NCBI GenBank assembly: GCA_934141555.1
Contig: CAKPCK010000001.1
Coordinates: 3,163 to 67,162 of the forward strand
DNA: 64,000 nucleotides
Origin: an uncultured Clostridia bacterium
GTDB lineage: Bacteria > Bacillota > Clostridia > TANB77 > CAG-508
Direction of reading: 5' to 3'
Part shown: positions 14,312 through 63,900 of the stretch, one piece after another
Layout of the letters: the number at the start of each line of letters is the position of its first letter
How positions within the stretch are numbered: the first letter of the stretch is position 1
Made by a program: the position numbers and the translations under genes
Notes under the pieces: generated by a model
What the model saw: the letters and a program-made list of their open reading frames with translations, nothing else
Told to the model about the DNA's origin: nothing
Databases searched by the model: none

Positions 14312-16102
14312 ATGTTTAACATTGAAGAACAATTAAAAATGTTACCAGATAAACCTGGAGTATATATAATGCATGATGCAGATGACAAAATAATATATGT
14401 AGGAAAAGCTGTTAATCTAAAAAGAAGAGTAAAATCTTATTTTAGAAAAACAGATAAAACTGAAAGAATAAAAAGAATGGTATCATTAATAGACCATTTT
14501 GAATACATAGTTGTTGATAATGAAGCAGAAGCATTAATATTAGAATGTAATTTAATAAAGAAAAATAGACCTAAATTTAATGTATTATTAAAAGATGATA
14601 AAACATATCCATATATAAAAATAGATATAAAATCAGATTATCCAAATGTGACAATAACAAGAAAAATAATAAATGATGGTTCAAAATATTTTGGACCATA
14701 TGCAAATCCTGGAGCAGCAAAAGAAATGCTTGATTTTATAAAACAAAAATATAAAATTAGACAATGTAAAAATTTCAGGTCTGAAACAAGAGCCTGTTTA
14801 AATTATCATATAAATAGATGTTTAGGTCCATGTATGGGATATGTTTCAAAAGAAGATTACAGAAAACAAATTGATGAAATAATAGACATCCTTGATGGAA
14901 AAGTTGATAAAGTATTAAAAGAACTTGAAAAACAAATGATTGAAGAGTCAAGTAAAATGAACTTTGAACAAGCCGCATATATAAGAGATAGAATGTTAGC
15001 GATACAAAGAGTTAATGAAAAACAAAAAGTATCAAATATAACAGAAAATAATATAGATGTAATAGGAATTGCAAAATCTGAAATTGAGGTATGTGTTGAA
15101 ATATTTTTTGTTAGAGGAAGCAAAATGGTAGGAAGAGAACATTACTTTTTTCAAGACATAAGAGAAATGGAAGACAAAGAAATAATTTCAGGGTTTATCA
15201 AACAATATTATATAGATAGTCAAAATTTACCTAATAAAATAATGGTAAGAGAAGAACTAGAAGATCAACAAGCAATAGAACAATGGCTAAGTAAAGAAGC
15301 TGGAAGAAAAGTAGAAATAAAAGCACCTAAAAAAGGTGAAAAATTAAGATTTGTAGAGATGGCTGATAATAATGCTAAAATTACGCTTGAAAATAAAGAA
15401 AGAGATAGAAGTGAGATTTTAGTTGAATTAAAAGAAGTATTGGGATTAGATAAGTTACCAAGAAAAATTGAAACATTTGATATATCAAATATTTCAGGAG
15501 AATATATGGTAGCTGGAATGTGTGTAATGGTTGATGGAACAATAAAAAGAAACATGTCAAGAAGATTTAAAATAAAAACAGTTTTAACACAAGATGATCC
15601 AAAATGTATGCAAGAAGTAGTAACACGCAGGTTAAAACATTCAATTGATAATAGTAGTTCATCAGGCTTTGGAAAGTTACCAGATGCGATATTTGCAGAT
15701 GGAGGAATTACACAAATAAGAGCAATAAAACAAGCTGTAAAATCATTAGAATTAGATATTCCTGTATTTGGTATGGTAAAAAATGATAAACACCAAACAA
15801 GAGCATTAATAAATGAACAAAGACAAGAATTTGAAATATCAGAAAATTTGATGAATTTAATTACAAAATTTCAAGATGAAGTACATGATACAGCAATTTC
15901 TTATCATAGAAAATTAAGAGATGAATCAATAACAAAATCAGAATTAGATGATATAAAAGGTATTGGTGAAGCAAAGAAAAAAGCATTATTAAAATATTTT
16001 GGAAGTGTTGAAAAAATTAGAAATTCTTCAATAGAAGAACTTATAAAAGTAAATGGAATTAATAAAGAATTAGCCAAAAATATATTAGAACAATTAAATT
16101 AA
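14312..16102 (+). CDS. uvrC: Excinuclease ABC subunit C.
   Basis: GIY-YIG N-terminus (PGVYIMHDADDKIIYVGKAVNLKRRV), UvrBC-interaction region, RNase H-like endonuclease domain and C-terminal HhH. Confidence 0.95.
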   Translation: MFNIEEQLKMLPDKPGVYIMHDADDKIIYVGKAVNLKRRVKSYFRKTDKTERIKRMVSLIDHFEYIVVDNEAEALILECNLIKKNRPKFNVLLKDDKTYPYIKIDIKSDYPNVTITRKIINDGSKYFGPYANPGAAKEMLDFIKQKYKIRQCKNFRSETRACLNYHINRCLGPCMGYVSKEDYRKQIDEIIDILDGKVDKVLKELEKQMIEESSKMNFEQAAYIRDRMLAIQRVNEKQKVSNITENNIDVIGIAKSEIEVCVEIFFVRGSKMVGREHYFFQDIREMEDKEIISGFIKQYYIDSQNLPNKIMVREELEDQQAIEQWLSKEAGRKVEIKAPKKGEKLRFVEMADNNAKITLENKERDRSEILVELKEVLGLDKLPRKIETFDISNISGEYMVAGMCVMVDGTIKRNMSRRFKIKTVLTQDDPKCMQEVVTRRLKHSIDNSSSSGFGKLPDAIFADGGITQIRAIKQAVKSLELDIPVFGMVKNDKHQTRALINEQRQEFEISENLMNLITKFQDEVHDTAISYHRKLRDESITKSELDDIKGIGEAKKKALLKYFGSVEKIRNSSIEELIKVNGINKELAKNILEQLN

Positions 16103-55437: not shown

Positions 55438-55483
55438 AAAATGAACTATTAAGTAAATAAATTACTTAATAGTTCGTTTTTTT
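55436..55483. terminator. Bidirectional terminator between the M23 peptidase gene and glmS.
   Basis: gaactattaagtaa / ttacttaatagttc perfect 14-bp stem, flanked by A5 and T7 runs. Confidence 0.9.
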
Positions 55484-57323
55484 ATTCGACTGTTACGGAT
55501 TTAGCAAGATTTCTTGGTTTATCAACATCTAATCCTTTTTCTTTAGAAATATAATAAGAAAGTAATTGTAAAGGAACAATTGCAACAATAGGTGAAAGAA
55601 GAATATTAGTATCTGGAATTTTAATAATTGTATCTATATTATTACTTGGCAATTCTTGATTTGTAATAACTAATGTTTTAGCACCACGAGTAATAACTTC
55701 TTGAATATTACTAATAGTTTTTTCAACTAAATTTTTATCTGTAATAATACTTATGACAGATATGCCATTTTCAATTAATGCAATAGGTCCATGTTTTAAT
55801 TCGCCAGCAGCATATGCTTCTGAATGTATATAAGAAATTTCTTTTAATTTTAAAGAAGCTTCAAGAGCAGTATTGTAATCAATACCTCTACCTAAGAAGA
55901 AAACATCTTTTTCTTGATAAATATTTTTTGCATAGTTTTTAATTTTTTCAGAAGATTTTAATGCTTCATCAATTTTATCTGGAAGATTAAAAATATCTTT
56001 TTTCAATTTTGCTAATTCTGAAGATGGAGTAGTTCCTAATATTTCAGCAAAATAAATTGCAAGAATTATAAGTAGCATAACTTGAGATGTATAGGCTTTT
56101 GTTGAAGCAACAGCAATTTCAGGGCCAGCATGTGTATAAATAGAGTAGTCAGCTTCTCTTGTAATAGAACTACCAATAACATTTGATACAGCAAGTGTTG
56201 TTGCTCCTTTTGATTTTGCAAGTTTTAATGCTGCAATAGTATCTGCTGTTTCACCAGATTGAGAGATGTAAATACATAAAGTATTTTTATCAATAATAGG
56301 ATTTCTATATCTAAATTCTGAAGCTATATCAACAGTAACTGGAATATTACATAAATTTTCAATTGCAATTTTTCCAGAAAGCCCAGCATGCATTGCAGTC
56401 CCACAAGCAACTATATATATTTTGTTTATTTTTGATAAAAATCCTTTTGTGAATTTTAAATCATCAAAATTACAAGGTTCATTTTCAGGTAAACGTGAAC
56501 CAATAGTTTCTCTTATTGCTGTTGGTTGTTCAAATATTTCTTTTAACATATAATCTTCAAAACCATTTTTATCTGCAGCACTAGCATTCCATTCTATACT
56601 TGTTAATTTTTTGTCTATTTTATTTAAATCAATATCAAAAAATTCAACATTGTCTCTTGAAATAAGAGCAAATTCATTATCATTTAAAAGATAAAAATCT
56701 TTTGTGAATGATAAAATTGCAGGAATATCTGAAGAAATATAATTTTCTCCATCACCTTTTCCTATAACAAGAGGGCTATCTTTTCTAATAACAATCATAT
56801 TGTCTGGCATATATTTTGAAATAACTTCAAGAGAGTAGCTTCCTTTAAATGATTTGCAAGCTTTTTGTACTGCACGTAAAACTTTTTTATTATCATTTTT
56901 TTTATCTTTTGAATAATAATAATGTATAAGATTTGGTATAATTTCTGTATCTGTTTGAGAATGAAATGTATAACCATTATCTAATAATAATTTTTTTAAA
57001 TCATTATAATTTTCAATAATTCCATTGTGAACAACAGCAAAACTATTACTATTATCTAAATGAGGATGTGCATTTTCTTTTGAAGGTTTTCCATGTGTTG
57101 CCCATCTTGTATGAGCAATTCCGACTGTTCCTTCAAGAGAATTTATTCCATCTAAATTATATAAGTTTCTAACTCTTCCTTTATCTTTCATAACTGAAAG
57201 ACCATTTTTTTCTATAGTTGATATTCCTGCAGAGTCATAACCTCTGTATTCAAGTCTTAAAAGACCATTAATTAAAATAGGACTAGCTTTTTGATGTCCT
57301 ATATATCCAATAATTCCACACAT
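55482..57323 (-). CDS. glmS: Glutamine--fructose-6-phosphate aminotransferase.
   Basis: MCGIIGY N-terminal nucleophile, two SIS domains, and the C-terminal DKPRNLAKSVTVE. Confidence 0.97.
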   Translation of the reverse strand: MCGIIGYIGHQKASPILINGLLRLEYRGYDSAGISTIEKNGLSVMKDKGRVRNLYNLDGINSLEGTVGIAHTRWATHGKPSKENAHPHLDNSNSFAVVHNGIIENYNDLKKLLLDNGYTFHSQTDTEIIPNLIHYYYSKDKKNDNKKVLRAVQKACKSFKGSYSLEVISKYMPDNMIVIRKDSPLVIGKGDGENYISSDIPAILSFTKDFYLLNDNEFALISRDNVEFFDIDLNKIDKKLTSIEWNASAADKNGFEDYMLKEIFEQPTAIRETIGSRLPENEPCNFDDLKFTKGFLSKINKIYIVACGTAMHAGLSGKIAIENLCNIPVTVDIASEFRYRNPIIDKNTLCIYISQSGETADTIAALKLAKSKGATTLAVSNVIGSSITREADYSIYTHAGPEIAVASTKAYTSQVMLLIILAIYFAEILGTTPSSELAKLKKDIFNLPDKIDEALKSSEKIKNYAKNIYQEKDVFFLGRGIDYNTALEASLKLKEISYIHSEAYAAGELKHGPIALIENGISVISIITDKNLVEKTISNIQEVITRGAKTLVITNQELPSNNIDTIIKIPDTNILLSPIVAIVPLQLLSYYISKEKGLDVDKPRNLAKSVTVE

Positions 57324-57349
57324 TTGTGAATCCTCCTTAAAATAGTTTG

Positions 57350-57535
57350 ATAGGGGCTATTAAAGTCAAAAGTCCCTTATATGCGGAATTGAAATATACT
57401 TATGTATTAATTTCTGTTACAACATTACATTGTTTTTTGTTATAATACTTTGGCTTAAGCTAAGCCACTAGAGCATCCGCCGAAAATTCGATAAACTCTA
57501 GACCTCGTCAACACATTTGTGCTCTGGCGCTTAAT
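57350..57535 (-). ncRNA. glmS: glmS ribozyme (GlcN6P-dependent self-cleaving riboswitch).
   Basis: The minus strand reads AGCGCCAGAGC...TTGACGAGG...GTTTATCGAATTTTCGGCGGATGC, matching the conserved core. It lies in the glmS 5' leader. Confidence 0.85.
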
Positions 57536-57630
57536 AAATAACTCCTTTCTTAATTTATTTTTTAATATTTCAATTTCTGTATTATATTATAATATATTAA
57601 ATATTTGTGCAAGTCTTTTGTTTAAAATAT

Positions 57631-57668
57631 ATAAAAAGCTATAAGAAATTATTCTTATAGCTTTTATT
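57631..57668 (-). terminator. Terminator of paralog cassette 1.
   Basis: agctataagaa-atta-ttcttatagct perfect 11-bp stem flanked by A/T runs. Near-identical to the element at 59098-59136. Confidence 0.85.
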
Positions 57669-57730
57669 TGAATGATTAAACTTATAGTTTGATCTAATAA
57701 TTGAACTTATGAGAAGGTGACATTTGATTA

Positions 57731-58921
57731 TTAATCAAGATAGTCAGAATTAAAGTCAATGTTAAATGGAGAATTTTTAGTAAAAGATGAATCAATCATA
57801 TTCCAAATATCACATACCAAATAAGTTGTAGGCGAGTCAAGTGTCCCATACTGTACCCAAACTAATTCAGTGGGTGGAATTTTGGAATGATAAAAACTAG
57901 TAGAATGCTTACGTCCCCATTTTGCACGAACTTTCTTTTTTGGTGGATAATGTTGTGAGCCAGTTCCATAAGGTATTGCTAAAATATCATCCAAACCATT
58001 GTCGACAATCTGGTAATAGAGTGCTTGAGCATATTGAGAAGATTCAATTGGTTTAGAACCAATTTCATGAGTTACTTCTTTAAATGCTTTTTCTAAAAGC
58101 TCACTCTGTTTTTCACTTGAAGTTTTTTTGAACAATGGGAAAGCGATAATTGCTTTTCTCCATACTGCTGAAATAATTTGATAAGAATTAGCAGTATGGT
58201 AAGAGTGTGGATAACAAATATGCAATACATTCAGGAAGTTTCCATTTAGTACATGAAAACCAGTAACATAAAGCTGAAGCTTATCGATAATATCCAAAAA
58301 ATTGGAAGTCATCTTATCATAGTAGTTATTTGCAATTTTGAGAACAGAGCCCTCAAAAAAGAAACTTATTGGTTCATTAGAAGAGTCCCAAAGAAATGGA
58401 AATGTAGATTTTAAAACAGAAACAACCTGCAGTTTTCTGAAAATTGCAGTAGAATTAAGAATATTTTTTTCCGATTCAGTAAGAACATTTTTGTCAAATT
58501 CGTAAGAATCAGTTGTTATAACTTTAACATTATTTCCGTTAATGGAAATATTAAAAGTAATGATAATCTTACAAAAAGTAGAAAATTTTCGAATAGAATC
58601 AGGAATGCGATAACCATGATTTAACTTATGCCAAATATTAAAACTATATGATTTTGTATTAGAATTGTATACAATTTCATCAGAAACGAACCAAGAATTA
58701 CATTCACAATATTTCCGAAGAAAACTTTTCAGATGATAGGCGAAAATAGCACCATAAACTTCTTTACGAATATTCGAATTCGACTTGATTTGACTGTCAA
58801 TTTTATTGATATGTGCTCTAATAAGTGGACAATCATAAAAATCAATATTATGAGATTGAATTAAAGAATTCAAAGGGTTACCAGTAATAGAAATTTCTAA
58901 ATTCTGATTGAAGTTTTTCAT
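57731..58921 (-). CDS. Uncharacterised protein, paralog 1 (396 aa, AT-rich copy).
   Basis: The MKNFNQ start at 58921 lies 8 nt after AGGAGG. About 50% identical by eye to the 59185-60474 product, sharing blocks NIDFYDC, DSYEFDK, NGNFLN, ANSYQIISAVWRKAI, SSEKQ.ELLEKAF, YAQA.YYQIVDN, ELVWVQYG and TTYLV. Confidence 0.75.
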   Translation of the reverse strand: MKNFNQNLEISITGNPLNSLIQSHNIDFYDCPLIRAHINKIDSQIKSNSNIRKEVYGAIFAYHLKSFLRKYCECNSWFVSDEIVYNSNTKSYSFNIWHKLNHGYRIPDSIRKFSTFCKIIITFNISINGNNVKVITTDSYEFDKNVLTESEKNILNSTAIFRKLQVVSVLKSTFPFLWDSSNEPISFFFEGSVLKIANNYYDKMTSNFLDIIDKLQLYVTGFHVLNGNFLNVLHICYPHSYHTANSYQIISAVWRKAIIAFPLFKKTSSEKQSELLEKAFKEVTHEIGSKPIESSQYAQALYYQIVDNGLDDILAIPYGTGSQHYPPKKKVRAKWGRKHSTSFYHSKIPPTELVWVQYGTLDSPTTYLVCDIWNMIDSSFTKNSPFNIDFNSDYLD

Positions 58922-58935
58922 AAACATATCCTCCT

Positions 58936-59018
58936 ATAATGTATGTGTTTAAAAAAAGTAGTATACCAAAAATAAAACCTCCTTATAAGTTCTTTATATT
59001 TCAATGTACGATAGATAT
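58936..59018 (-). promoter_or_regulatory. Conserved 5' leader of cassette 1 with an internal SD-like AAGGAGG.
   Basis: The minus strand reads atcgtacattgaaa...gaactt.taaggaggttt.tatttt, shared with cassette 2. No start codon lies at SD distance from the decoy. Confidence 0.5.
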
Positions 59019-59046
59019 ATTATAACATATTATTATAAAAAAGCAA
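59019..59046 (-). promoter_or_regulatory. SigmaA promoter of cassette 1.
   Basis: On the minus strand: TTGCTT, 16-nt spacer, TATAAT. Confidence 0.6.
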
Positions 59047-59097
59047 TATAATTGAATATGACGAATGATTATAAGAAAGATAGAAAAATATGAAATA

Positions 59098-59136
59098 CCA
59101 AAAAAGCTACGAGAAATTATTCTCATAGCTTTTTTG
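59098..59136 (-). terminator. Terminator of paralog cassette 2.
   Basis: agctacgagaa-atta-ttctcatagct. This is an 11-bp stem with one U-G wobble in the minus sense, flanked by A/T runs. Confidence 0.85.
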
Positions 59137-59184
59137 GTTAGTCTGTTAAACCATAAGAATACAGTTTAACAGGGGAACTTTGTT

Positions 59185-60474
59185 TTACTCGAAATCATCA
59201 CCACCATCGGTGTCATCATCGTCAGCGTTGGTATCATCCAGCGAAGAGTAAATGTTTACCGAAACGATGTTGAATGCGGAATTGGGGGTGAAAGTTTCGG
59301 CAATCATATGCCAAAGTTCACCCACCAAATAGGTGGTGCGGTTTTCCTGAGAGCCATACTGGACCCACACCAGTTCAGAAGGGGCCATCTTGGAATGATC
59401 AAACTGCTCAAATTCCTCATCGGAGGTAAGCAGAGTTGCCTTTGCGTTGATGTTGTCTTCACGACCCCATCTTGCACAAACCTTCTTCTTTGCAGGGAAG
59501 GGAAGTGCGCCAGCCCCACGAGGAACTGCCAAAAGGTTATCCAGATTGTTGTCAACAATCTGGTAATAAATGGCCTGAGCATATGCCAAAGCATTAAGCT
59601 GCTTAGAGCCAATTTCCTTCTTTACCTCGGAAAAGGCCTTCTCCAGAAGCTCTGCCTGCTTTTCGCTGGAAAGCTTCTTGAACATGGGGAAGACAACGAT
59701 AGCCTTCCGCCATACTGCAGAAATGATCTGGTAGCTGTTTGCTGAGTAGTAACTCCGCGGATAGCAGAAGTTCAGGGCATTCAGAAAGTTGCCGTTGGCC
59801 AACTTGAAGTTTGCCAGATAGTCCTTCACCTCGCTGATGGCAGCCTGGAAGCTGTTGAGCATCTTACCATAATAGGTGTTAGATACTCGAAGAACATTTC
59901 CTTCGAAAACGAAGTTTTTCTGTACCATTTCGGTAACAGGTTCTTTGTCAATACCATAGTGAACTTCGCCAAAGATAAGCGAAGTATTAGGAACAGGTAC
60001 TACAGAAATGTTTTTGAGAGTGACACCAGAAATCATGGTCTTTTTGTCAAACTCATAAGAGTCAGCAGTTACAACCTTAACGGCCTGGCCTGTAAAGGCT
60101 ACGGTGACATTGATGATGAATTTGACAAATGTTTTGGTTTTGAACCCCAAGTGATCGATGCTGTATCCAGAGCTGATCTTGTTCGCGAGGTCGAAACTGT
60201 ACGTTCCGGCACTACGATTGTAGGTCATTTTATTGGATACAGTCCAATTGCCGTTGGCACAATGCCGACGGAAAATCGAAACGAGCTGTGCTGCAAAAAC
60301 AGCACCATAAACCTCATTACGAGTTTTGGCACTTGCGGAAATCTTCTCATTGATTTTGGCGATATGTGCTCTTACCAGAGCACAATCATAAAAGTCGATG
60401 TTGTGAGCCTGCTTGAGTGCATCCATAGTGCCTTCTGCGATGCGGACTTCAAAATTCTGATTAAAGCTTTTCAT
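59185..60474 (-). CDS. Uncharacterised protein, paralog 2 (429 aa, GC-rich copy with a polyacidic C-terminal tail).
   Basis: ATG lies 8 nt after GGAGGA. Sampled 60-nt lines count 45%, 52% and 58% GC. Antisense and off-frame ORFs stay open because stops are scarce. The tail reads DDTNADDDDTDGGDDFE. Confidence 0.75.
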   Translation of the reverse strand: MKSFNQNFEVRIAEGTMDALKQAHNIDFYDCALVRAHIAKINEKISASAKTRNEVYGAVFAAQLVSIFRRHCANGNWTVSNKMTYNRSAGTYSFDLANKISSGYSIDHLGFKTKTFVKFIINVTVAFTGQAVKVVTADSYEFDKKTMISGVTLKNISVVPVPNTSLIFGEVHYGIDKEPVTEMVQKNFVFEGNVLRVSNTYYGKMLNSFQAAISEVKDYLANFKLANGNFLNALNFCYPRSYYSANSYQIISAVWRKAIVVFPMFKKLSSEKQAELLEKAFSEVKKEIGSKQLNALAYAQAIYYQIVDNNLDNLLAVPRGAGALPFPAKKKVCARWGREDNINAKATLLTSDEEFEQFDHSKMAPSELVWVQYGSQENRTTYLVGELWHMIAETFTPNSAFNIVSVNIYSSLDDTNADDDDTDGGDDFE

Positions 60475-60488
60475 AATATATTTCCTCC

Positions 60489-60580
60489 AAAGTCGATAAA
60501 TAAAAAATGCATAATATAGGGGAAAATAGAAACCTCCTTGTAAAGTTCCCTATATGTGTTTCAATGTACGATATATATGT
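60489..60580 (-). promoter_or_regulatory. Conserved 5' leader of cassette 2 with an internal SD-like AAGGAGG inside a hairpin loop.
   Basis: The minus strand reads atcgtacattgaaacacatatagggaactttacaaggaggtttctattttcccctata. The tataggg/ccctata 7-bp stem encloses the decoy SD. Confidence 0.5.
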
Positions 60581-60609
60581 ATTATAGCACACTATTTTTA
60601 AAAAGTCAA
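60581..60609 (-). promoter_or_regulatory. SigmaA promoter of cassette 2.
   Basis: On the minus strand: TTGACT, 17-nt spacer, TATAAT. Confidence 0.65.
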
Positions 60610-60661
60610 TATATTATGTAAAATCTGCCATGTAGTAAATATGTAAAATATATAAAAAATA

Positions 60662-60691
60662 TTGACAAATATAATTATGATATGATATAAT
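60662..60691 (+). promoter_or_regulatory. SigmaA promoter with extended -10, candidate rpoB promoter.
   Basis: TTGACA, 18-nt spacer, TGaTATAAT, about 295 nt upstream of rpoB. Confidence 0.55.
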
Positions 60692-60985
60692 TATATGCGT
60701 ATAAATTTGCAAATTGGTAATTTTTAGAAATTATCAGATTTAATTCAAAATGATAAAATTTAGAAAAATAAGAATTAAATATAAGTAAAATAAAGGGAGA
60801 AAATTGTAGAGCAGACAATGATCAAAACTTTACGAAACTATATTTTAAGAGGGGATTTTTCTAATTAAATATTATTCTCGTAAGAAAACTAGCCAAGCCA
60901 TTACTTAAATATGGCATTTTTCTTTAAATGGCAGAATTTCAAACGAAACAAAAAGCTGCTTAATATTTTATAAGGAGTGATTTTT

Positions 60986-63900
60986 TTGGAAATCAAAGAT
61001 GTTAAATTCGGAAGAACAACCCGTAAAGATTTCTCAAAAGTTGGCGATTTTATAGAAATGCCAAACTTAATTAAAGTTCAAAAAGATTCTTATGACTGGT
61101 TTATTGAAGAAGGATTAGGAGAAGTATTAAAAGATATTTCACCAATCATAGACTATTCAGGAAATCTAGTATTAGAATTTTTTGACTACTACATGGAAGA
61201 AAAGACAAAATATACAGAAGAAGAAGCAAAAGAAAGAGATGCAACATATTCTACAAGATTACACGTAAAAGTAAGATTAATAAACCGTGAATCAGGTGAA
61301 ATCAAAGAACAAGAAATTTATTTAGGTGATTTCCCACTAATGACAGAAAGTGGAACATTTATAATAAATGGTGCAGAAAGAGTTGTAGTTAGTCAATTAG
61401 TACGTTCACCAGGATGTTACTATGATGAAATATTTGATACAAAAACAGGAAAGAAAACATATACATCAACAATTATGCCATTAAGAGGGGCATGGTTAGA
61501 ATATGAAACAGATGGAAATGATATATTCTGGGTACGTGTTGATAGAACAAGAAAAATTCCAATTACAACATTATTAAGAGCAATTGGATTAGTATCAGAT
61601 GACCAAATAAGAGCATTATTCGGAGATGAAGCATTACTAGAAACAACAATACAAAAAGATCCAATAAAAACAGGTGAAGAAGCATTAATCGAAATTTACA
61701 AAAAATTAAGACCTGGAGAATTACCAACAGTAGAAGCTGCAAAAAGCTTATTTAATGGATTATTCTTTGACAATAGAAGATATGATTTAGCAAAAGTAGG
61801 AAGATATAAATTTAACCAAAAATTAAGTATCGCAAACAGAATAAAAAATCAAGTTGCATTTGAAGATATTATGGATAAAGAAACAGGAGAAGTTTTTGTT
61901 GCAGCAGGAGAAGTTATTTCAGCAGAAGCAGCAGAAGCAATCCAGAATGCAGGTATAAATGTAGTAGATATTAAGTTTGGAGAGAAAAAATTAAGAATAA
62001 TTGGTAATGGAATAGTAAATATTCATTCAGTATTACCAAATGTAGACTTAAGCAGCTTACATATAAAAGAATATGTAAATTATGAAGTATTAAAAAATAT
62101 AATGGAAAATACTTCTGAAGAAGAATTAGTTAAAACATTAAAACAAAGAGAAGAAGAACTAGTTCCAAAATATATAACAACAGAAGACATGATAGCATCA
62201 ATAAACTATTTATTAAATATGTATCATGGATATGGAAAAGCTGATGATATAGATCACTTAGCAAATCGTAGAATAAGATGTGTTGGAGAATTATTACAAA
62301 ATCAATTCAGAATTGGTTTAGCAAGACTTGAAAGAGTTGTTCGTGAAAGAATGACAATTCAAGACTTAGATGTTATAACACCACAATCATTAATAAACAC
62401 AAAACCAATAACATCATCAATAAGAGAATTCTTTGGAAGTTCACAATTATCACAATTCATGGATCAAACAAACCCATTATCAGAATTAACACATAAAAGA
62501 AGAATTTCAGCATTAGGACCTGGTGGTTTGTCAAGAGAAAGAGCAGGATTCGAAGTTCGTGATATTCATTATACACATTATGGTAGATTATGTCCAATTG
62601 AATCTCCAGAAGGACCAAACATTGGATTAATTTCAGCATTATCATCATTTGCTAATATAAATGAATATGGATTTATTGAAACACCATATAGAAAAGTAGA
62701 TCCAGAAACACATAGAGTAACAGATATTGTTGAATATATGAGTGCAGATGTTGAAGATAATTACATGATAGCACAAGCATCTGAACCAATGAATGAAAAC
62801 AATGAATTCATAAATAAGCGTGTTCGTGTAAGACATAGAAATGAAATTATAGAAGTTGATAAAGAATTAGTACAATATGTTGATGTATCACCAAAACAAT
62901 TAGTATCAATTGCAGCTGCAATGATTCCATTCTTGGAAAATGATGATGCTAAAAGATCTTTAATGGGATCAAACATGCAACGTCAAGCAGTTCCATTAAT
63001 GACATCAGAAGCACCAATTATAGCAACAGGTATTGAATATAGAGCAGCAAAAGATTCAGGAATATTAATATTAGCTGAAGATGATGGTGTTGTAGAAAAA
63101 GTTACTGGTGACAGTATCACAATGAAATATAACAATGGTAAAACAGTTGTACATAAACTACGTAAATTCAAAAGAACAAATGGTGGAACATGTATCAATC
63201 AAAGACCAATAGTTAGAAAAGGTGAAATAGTTAAAAAAGGTGATGCGTTAGCAGATGGACCAGCAACAAAAGATGGAGAAATGGCATTAGGTAAAAACAT
63301 GTTAGTAGCATTCTCAACATGGGAAGGTTACAACTATGAGGATGCTATTCTTTTAAATGAAAGATTAGTACAAGAAGACATATTTACATCAATACATATT
63401 GAAGAATATGATTGTGAATGTCGTGATACAAAATTAGGCCCAGAAGAAATAACAAGAGATATACCAAATGTTGGAGATGACGCATTAAAAGATCTTGATG
63501 AAAATGGTATTATTAGAATAGGTGCAGAAGTAAGGCCTGGAGATATATTAGTTGGTAAAGTTACTCCAAAAGGAGAAACAGACTTAACAGCAGAAGAAAG
63601 ATTACTTCGTGCAATATTTGGAGAAAAAGCTAGAGAAGTAAGAGATACATCACTTCGTGTACCACATGGTGAAGCTGGAACAATTGTTGATGTAAAAATA
63701 TTTACAAGAGACAATTCAGAAGAATTAGGACCTGGAGTAAATCAAGTAATTAGATGTTATATTGCTACAAAGAGAAAAATATCAGTTGGAGATAAAATGG
63801 CTGGACGTCATGGTAACAAAGGTGTTATTTCAAGAATATTACCAAAAGAAGATATGCCATTCTTACCAGATGGAACACCAATAGACATTTTATTAAACCC

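Follow-up and report, generated by a model that had tools for sequence, protein, structure and literature searches.

The 64,000-nt window analysed here (the whole stretch of contig CAKPCK010000001.1, from an uncultured Clostridia bacterium) holds, between its glmS and rpoB genes, two tandem paralogues, copy A and copy B, and copy B carries a shift towards G and C that begins and ends with its open reading frame (ORF). Copy B has 45.2% GC, with GC fractions at the first, second and third codon positions (GC1/2/3) of 0.49/0.35/0.52, in a window that is 26.6% GC overall; the corresponding values for copy A are 29.8% and 0.36/0.32/0.21, and glmS, which lies beside the array, has a GC3 of 0.07. Measured against the 43 other ORFs in the window, whose GC3 ranges from 0.05 to 0.15 (mean 0.101, s.d. 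0.023), copy B stands at z = 18 and copy A at z = 4.8. A preliminary description of this sequence had reported the GC jump in copy B, which these values bear out, but it had also placed copy A at the genome background, which copy A exceeds in both GC3 and CpG content. By elimination of alternatives, we tentatively favour a reading that is somewhat short of probable: a pressure towards GC that acts within the ORF alone, in all likelihood because selection acts on the nucleotide content of the coding sequence or on its mRNA.

The edges of the shift were located with a two-change-point likelihood fit, which placed the GC-rich segment at 59170-60447. The 2-lnL support intervals are 59135-59202 and 60443-60467, within about 15-30 nt of the ends of the copy B ORF, in agreement with the sharp boundaries first described. 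The flanks of copy B have 21-25% GC, compared with 21.3 +/- 5.2% in host intergenic DNA, and its promoter, leader motif (CGTACATTGAAA), AAGGAGG and terminator align with those of copy A. As had been argued before, simple insertion of a foreign gene cannot account for AT-rich flanks that are homologous between the copies. Copies A and B are each a full monocistronic unit, consisting of a sigma-70-type promoter, an AT-rich leader of about 100 nt, the ORF, a 3' hairpin module and a terminator. The units repeat with a period of ~1553 nt, five units can be aligned, and identity between the A and B units reaches 85% in the terminator, 90% at the ORF start and 95% in the leader motif. With homology from promoter to terminator and a constant period, the array is a tandem duplication of entire expression units, which is why the flanks of A and B are alike. 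The two proteins are 48% identical (BLASTP 1e-139) and the two ORFs are 60% identical in nucleotide sequence. Because the B/A arrangement is present in many independent assemblies, an assembly chimera is excluded.

The shift pervades the codon usage of copy B. CTG rises from a share of 0.2% in the host to 32%, ATC from 2% to 56%, ACC from 1% to 52%, CAG from 5% to 100% and CGG from 0% to 23%; together with TCC, these codons make up 0-5% of host usage and 21-100% of usage in copy B. Many A-ending codons are avoided, and ATA, CCA and CAA are absent. The ORF is a mosaic, with GC3 varying from 0.27 to 0.81 along its length. Translational optimisation is an unlikely cause: the rpoB gene of a close relative has a GC3 of 0.10, and the codons that copy B favours are near-unused in the host. 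CpG is strongly depleted in the host, with rho(CG) = 0.26 over window positions 1-57600 (0.25 +/- 0.14 in 1.3-kb chunks).

To place the contrast in time, the window lineage (W) can be compared with its sister lineage (S2). The genes and spacers bordering the array are closely similar between the two, with identities of 98% in rpoB, 95% in the rpoB-proximal spacer, 90% in the glmS ribozyme region and 94% in glmS. Within the array, identity is 78% in the promoter and leader of B, 78% in the B-A spacer (IG2), 72% in the 3' module of A, 75% in the B ORF and 82% in the A ORF. Because the non-coding parts are as diverged as the ORFs, the block is an old haplotype, and the B ORF was not dropped between pre-existing flanks. 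The non-coding DNA of the block has remained at the AT-rich equilibrium wherever the haplotype resided. The S2 array has three units, with 39.6% GC in B, 28.7% in A and 40.5% in C, separated by ~260-nt spacers of 20-27% GC. This GC-rich, AT-rich, GC-rich alternation excludes a regional mutational or recombinational cause. The comparison shows a GC contrast between adjacent units that is old and heritable. Across the family, GC3 takes the values 0.17, 0.18, 0.19, 0.21, 0.27, 0.37, 0.39, 0.40, 0.43 and 0.52, all of them above the host, and high GC3 occurs in two separate branches, B/C and L095/L096.

The direction of change was assessed by polarising substitutions by parsimony, with the other paralogues as outgroups. 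On the window lineage of B, 44 AT-to-GC changes were counted against 9 GC-to-AT changes (29 against 2 at third positions only), and on the sister lineage of B the counts were 26 and 19. For A, the corresponding counts were 18 and 13 on the window lineage and 17 and 32 on the sister lineage. Most of the GC gain in B falls in residues 201-290, where GC3 is 0.7-0.8 and where, among synonymous differences from the orthologue, 22 have the G or C in the window and 4 the opposite. Single-nucleotide polymorphisms (SNPs) within the species gave 17 AT-to-GC and 10 GC-to-AT changes in B when polarised by outgroup; these counts are given because majority-rule polarisation is confounded by alleles shared with the sister lineage. 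By our own inference, the host GC3 of 0.10 predicts that, at a target with 50% GC3, mutations from GC to AT outnumber those from AT to GC by about 9:1. An excess of GC-to-AT mutation is a general rule in bacteria (PMC2936529). Amelioration should appear as decay towards host GC, and both the B branch and the SNPs run the other way, although the polarisation is imperfect.

The ORF-limited shift, the host-like flanks, the same contrast in the sister lineage and the direction of substitution together suggest that the composition has been kept up in place. Copy B is one full expression unit in a tandem array that fills the hypervariable rpoB-glmS slot of a narrow clade of gut Clostridia with ~26% GC. 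Under ORF-confined pressure, its GC-richness would have arisen and persisted in place, inside AT-rich genomes, through a force that acts on the translated region only and that would still be adding G and C along the B lineage of this genome. The agent would most likely be natural selection on nucleotide content, with mRNA stability, intragenic AT-rich signals and translation through codons near-unused in the host as candidate targets. Two units with like promoters and leaders would then differ in expression.

Several observations weigh against this account. Selection on mRNA properties, which was among the explanations first proposed, survives by elimination of the alternatives, but no selective target has been identified. 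Copy A, L097 and L098 lie near host composition, so GC-richness is dispensable for the protein. The amino acids have shifted as well, with GC1 up by 0.12 and a summed share of glycine, alanine, arginine and proline of 0.20 in copy B versus 0.13 in copy A. This shift favours a nucleotide-level target over codon-level tuning alone, and it fits any directional pressure sustained over a long time, such as a stay in a host with ~45% GC. Moreover, rho(CG) is 0.53-0.85 in all members, the AT-rich ones included, versus the 0.26 of the host, a level that could point to a foreign origin for the entire family. Finally, AT-rich outgroups at near-saturated sites tilt parsimony towards AT-to-GC changes, and B is mosaic and recombining, so that some apparent substitutions may be imported tracts. 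Some SNPs are shared with the sister allele, a sign of recombination.

The array occupies a slot that is both variable and exchanged. In all members with usable flanks, the family gene lies beside glmS, with rpoB opposite wherever the contig extends that far. The hosts have glmS genes 87-95% identical to that of the window at the DNA level, and the resident slot proteins are 21-80% identical. Slots hold one, two or three units: B and A in the window lineage; B (425 aa), A (398 aa) and C (441 aa) in the sister lineage (L003 and L012); and a single unit in the GTDB representative L015 (glmS 97% identical in protein), whose protein is 23% identical to A/B and whose promoter and leader are homologous, with a different terminator. 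L095/L096 and L098 hold one additional type each, and L097 holds an additional type on a 1.5-kb contig without flanking genes. In more distant relatives (glmS 82-84%; L016-L019), uvrC adjoins glmS and no family gene is found there. As rpoB takes the place of uvrC in the window, the slot arose with a rearrangement in the sub-clade. In the window, uvrC (14312-16102) lies ~40 kb from glmS, with rpoB across the slot.

Close relatives thus hold very divergent alleles in one slot between core genes, and divergence among the alleles of the block is several times that of the genome around it. The A orthologues of W and S2 are 80% identical in protein (synonymous divergence, dS, 0.74) and the B orthologues 70% (dS 1.04), compared with 96% for glmS (dS 0.25). 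Positions 1-6402 of L009 match window positions 55800-62300 across the rpoB-B-A block save for one inserted base, which lies in a spacer, with none in the ORFs; its glmS is 2.9% diverged from that of the window (43 mismatches in ~1470-1670 nt), with the breakpoint ~120 nt past the A stop codon, a pattern indicating that the array was transferred recently by recombination. In the comparison of S2 with S3, dS is 0.011 for the C gene and 0.07 for glmS. The common haplotype of the species has a breakpoint at the 3' end of B: its divergence from the window is 1.2-2.1% over rpoB and B and 0-0.3% beyond that point, and polymorphism within the species amounts to 2.1% in B, which is mosaic, versus 0.2% in A. 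These comparisons show that strains exchange a ~3-kb block through homologous recombination, with a genealogy decoupled from that of its flanks.

The textbook favourite for copy B is a foreign allele, and the preliminary description had raised the possibility that recombination with an allele of a higher-GC donor replaced the ORF. B/C-type units or segments would have been recombined in repeatedly from an unsampled higher-GC reservoir (a bacterium, phage or plasmid), with the family members standing at different stages of amelioration. The decoupled genealogy seen with L009, the C gene that is less diverged than glmS between S2 and S3, a dS of A and B that is 3-4 times that of neighbouring genes, the mosaic structure of B and the raised GC3 and CpG of all family members are what such imports could leave behind, and the shifts at the three codon positions are roughly those expected at compositional equilibrium by our own comparison with textbook regressions. 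However, a donor should be visible as homologues in a lineage of matching composition, and no reservoir was found in 15 billion proteins, 1.84 billion representatives, 185,579 GTDB species genomes, IMG/VR or JGI metagenomes; wherever usable flanks were recovered, the locus proved to be this one slot and its host AT-rich. The flanks have diverged together with the ORFs (72-78% versus 75-82% identity) yet keep host GC, and to produce the orthologous B/A contrast, both lineages would have had to undergo replacement in parallel and with matching types. Recombination between alleles whose GC3 is 0.8 and 0.4 would find little identity to act on, and the inferred change runs away from host composition. 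The surroundings of the array show none of the atypical adjacent non-coding DNA, mobility genes or scars of foreign DNA, its flanks being host-like and its neighbours rpoB and glmS. We regard import as unlikely, and less likely at copy B than ORF-confined pressure. GC-biased gene conversion (gBGC), by which heteroduplexes between divergent alleles or paralogues are repaired towards G and C, would suit a slot that recombines, a copy B that is more polymorphic and mosaic than A and also GC-richer, a family-wide GC3 above the host and a GC gain at all codon positions. An association of GC3 with recombination has been reported for bacteria, and, as in that work, the locus is recombination-prone and GC3 is raised mostly through host-non-optimal codons (PMC4450053). 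Conversion should nevertheless enrich the non-coding parts of a tract as it does the coding parts, and the block flanks, which are 22-28% different between alleles, remain at 21-25% GC; A, lying between B and C in the sister array, stays AT-rich, and the adjacent paralogue in general is barely affected. To our knowledge, a GC3 rise of ~40 points is far above the gene-conversion effects reported for bacteria. We consider gBGC a distinctly improbable cause.

A local mutational bias or hypermutation, for example through transcription-replication collisions at strongly expressed genes that oppose the fork, is very unlikely. Copies A and B do lie on the minority strand behind near-consensus promoters, and their dS and nonsynonymous divergence (dN) are raised relative to neighbouring genes. 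Yet the two copies, alike in orientation and promoter type, are 31 GC3 points apart, neither the transcribed leaders nor the 3' untranslated regions are GC-rich, C has diverged less than glmS between S2 and S3, and non-coding flanks that have diverged like the ORFs point to older alleles and not to faster mutation of the ORFs. The suggestion that the two copies were recoded so as not to recombine with each other fares no better, and we give it slightly less credence still: tandem direct repeats are prone to deletion by recombination, and the composition shift does cut ORF nucleotide identity to the value given above, but at identical residues the two genes use identical codons 89 times against 77.9 +/- 6.0 expected, and their longest identical run is 14 nt against 14.4 nt after shuffling, with sister-lineage pairs behaving likewise. 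A protein identity of ~50% is already too low for ready recombination, and the conserved flanks, the best recombination substrate, were left unrecoded. The least probable explanation is an opposite-strand gene in the codon-aligned antisense frame of B, whose overlap would limit the codons that B can use. Plus-strand ORFs at 59308-59745 and 59959-60519 both lie in this frame, which holds a single in-register stop in the B genes of the window and the sister lineage and in C, compared with nine in L095 of similar GC3. The frame has only one stop because copy B is nearly without TTA, CTA and TCA (0, 0 and 1 codons), part of a broad avoidance of A-ending codons, and synonymous shuffles leave it open over a mean of 320 codons; the minus-strand ORF at 59304-59612, which is out of frame, stems from this composition too. 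As first proposed, the additional open frames are by-products of composition. Moreover, neither a promoter nor a ribosome-binding site was identified for an antisense gene, and the three related sequences are not independent observations. A further possibility, which we hold to be as improbable as gBGC, concerns the role of the protein: a rapidly turning-over orphan family engaged in conflict, such as phage defence, whose N-terminal half would vary and serve in sensing while the C-terminal half is conserved, and in which some paralogues would be kept GC-rich to escape AT-directed attack or a nuclease, or to stay translated under altered conditions. If so, this would be selection for the wholesale in-place recoding of one paralogue.

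The locus is a replaceable hypervariable cassette with a previously undescribed protein family and an ORF-limited, paralogue-specific GC shift. Replaceable hypervariable cassettes between core genes include the S-layer cassette of Clostridioides difficile, the O-antigen locus (galF-gnd) and the pneumococcal capsule locus (dexB-aliA). Like these, the slot is fixed between housekeeping genes, carries very divergent alleles among close relatives and is exchanged through flanking homologous recombination, with discordant genealogy and atypical composition. Unlike them, it holds 1-3 monocistronic copies of a cytoplasmic orphan protein and not genes for surface structures, and its anomaly runs towards GC, stays within the ORFs and varies from one unit to the next, with no donor pool visible outside the clade. 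Compositionally atypical acquired genes ameliorate towards their host, a concept owed to Lawrence and Ochman, and copy B resembles them in GC, codon usage and a dinucleotide signature far from the host; in contrast to them, its flanks are host-like and homologous to the flanks of the resident copy, mobility genes are absent, a search for donor homologues found none and the inferred change is away from host composition. In high-GC Streptomyces, bldA and the TTA codon provide control of expression through a rare codon. Copy B likewise uses codons near-absent from the rest of the genome, by analogy only, since it involves hundreds of codons plus an amino-acid shift, with no dedicated tRNA or regulator identified. 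Atypical GC is routinely read as a sign of recent foreign origin, and copy B, 40 GC3 points off its host, points the opposite way. If ORF-confined pressure holds, copy B would be a clean natural case of ORF-specific GC pressure in a bacterium and a caution for composition-based detection of horizontal transfer.

The proteins of the slot form a small orphan family. The copy A and B proteins have no match in PADLOC or NCBIfam and no significant match in Pfam or PHROG, the best being DUF5615 at E = 0.005, below its threshold, and a sequence-profile search of the PDB with the family returned no match. Searches yielded five to seven clusters among 5.8 billion, seven profile-search matches among 1.84 billion representatives and three JGI loci, with no members found in the 185,579 GTDB species genomes or in IMG/VR. 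The database name is always 'hypothetical protein', and the gene is on hundreds of human-gut contigs. Protein identity is 21-33% between types and 44-56% within the A/B/C group. An AlphaFold2 (AF2) model from ten family members reached a predicted local distance difference test score (pLDDT) of 84.7 and a predicted template modelling score (pTM) of 0.79. It shows a helical hairpin and an antiparallel sheet at the N terminus, a helical middle, a small C-terminal domain of alpha/beta type and, in B and C only, a disordered acidic tail. When two AF2 models were compared with the PDB and BFVD by Foldseek, nothing was found at E <= 0.001 (best 0.013-0.025). A TBP-like/DUF4468 fold was set aside as an assignment, as it gave sub-threshold matches only. 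The slot family has a confidently predicted fold with no structural relative among the structures searched, and its evolution resembles that of genes in biological conflict. The disordered acidic tail of B and C is DDTNADDDDTDGGDDFE (window 59185-59260). A 14-residue segment beginning NINAKATLLTSDEE is present in B, C and distant types and missing from A-type proteins, probably through a deletion in A. Among B variants within the species, ~12 of 14 replacements fall in the N-terminal 175 residues (window 59950-60474), and the C-terminal 250 residues are near-invariant, as would be expected if the N-terminal half varies and the C-terminal half is conserved.

Table 1. Features of the tandem array and its surroundings, in window coordinates.
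Feature	Position	Strand	Details
Copy B ORF	59185..60474	minus	429 aa, 45% GC, GC3 0.52, orphan family
Promoter of B: TTGACT, 17-nt spacer, TATAAT with TG extension (TGnTATAAT)	60581..60609	minus	11/12 consensus matches
5' leader of B, AT-rich	60475..60574	minus	holds CGTACATTGAAA (60559-60570), GGGAACTT, AAGGAGG, then GGAGGA preceding ATG
3' module of B: AAGTTCCC, then hairpin CTGTTAAAC...GTTTAACAG	59143..59180	minus	
Intrinsic terminator of B	59097..59138	minus	compensatory base changes across paralogues
Promoter of A, extended -10 type (TGTTATAAT)	59019..59046	minus	read from sequence; not listed by consensus scan
5' leader of A, homologous to B leader	58922..59012	minus	aligns with leader of B
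Copy A ORF	57731..58921	minus	396 aa (398 aa from upstream ATG at 58927), 30% GC, GC3 0.21
3' module of A plus terminator (57634-57665)	57634..57730	minus	
Hypervariable recombination-exchanged block	57610..60655	no strand	similarity to close relatives collapses at ~60600-60655 and ~57610-57630
Divergent perfect-consensus promoter before rpoB; conserved left flank of slot	60662..60691	plus	rpoB ORF from ~60977
glmS ribozyme; conserved right flank of slot	57394..57542	minus	
glmS ORF	55482-57323		beyond glmS ribozyme

The anatomy of the units is given in Table 1. The promoter of B is conserved across all family types, and exact occurrences of CGTACATTGAAA in the window are limited to the leaders of A and B. 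The terminator stem shows compensatory base changes between paralogues. For the leader, RNAalifold gave only a weak invariant 7-bp hairpin, without covariation, and secondary structure there is unsupported. The sequence AAGTTCCC that follows B is the reverse complement of GGGAACTT in its leader, and the pair recurs in every A, B and C unit, those of L003 included, with the first member in the leader (GAACTT in A) and the second in the bases after the stop codon (AAGTTC in A). Its members lie at 60535-60552 and 59173-59180 for B, and at 58975-58990 and 57700-57712 for A. The pair could serve end-to-end pairing of the mRNA or be a common protein-binding site. Each leader also has two Shine-Dalgarno-like sequences ~45-50 nt apart (window 60475-60545; L003 2050-2121). 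In B-type units only, a frame of 18-19 codons starts with ATT after the first of these, and its TGA stop overlaps the main ATG (ATGA); units of types A and C do not conserve this frame, and we make no claim for it.

Three classes of mobile or diversifying element were rejected for the array. An integron gene cassette is ruled out on unit anatomy: a promoter and a terminator are present in every unit, the array is bordered by rpoB and glmS, and the 30-nt 3' hairpin resembles an attC core-site pair only loosely, as read from the sequence. A transposon is ruled out on anatomy as well, and neither transposon-type terminal repeats nor target duplications were seen at the array. Adenine mutagenesis of the type practised by diversity-generating retroelements was considered on account of a low frequency of A at third codon positions (A3; 0.15-0.25 versus 0.55), but other minus-strand genes share the A/T asymmetry, and no template/variable repeat pair was found in 57300-61100. 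The third-position asymmetry between the strands extends over the whole window, with A3 of 0.47-0.74 (0.40 in one gene) and a third-position T frequency (T3) of 0.18-0.49 in plus-strand genes, compared with A3 of 0.28-0.46 and T3 of 0.48-0.59 in minus-strand genes. The highest A3 in the window, 0.74, belongs to an ORF at 50-1243 with an internal peptide repeat (TAAEIKEIVE...), possibly a repeat protein.

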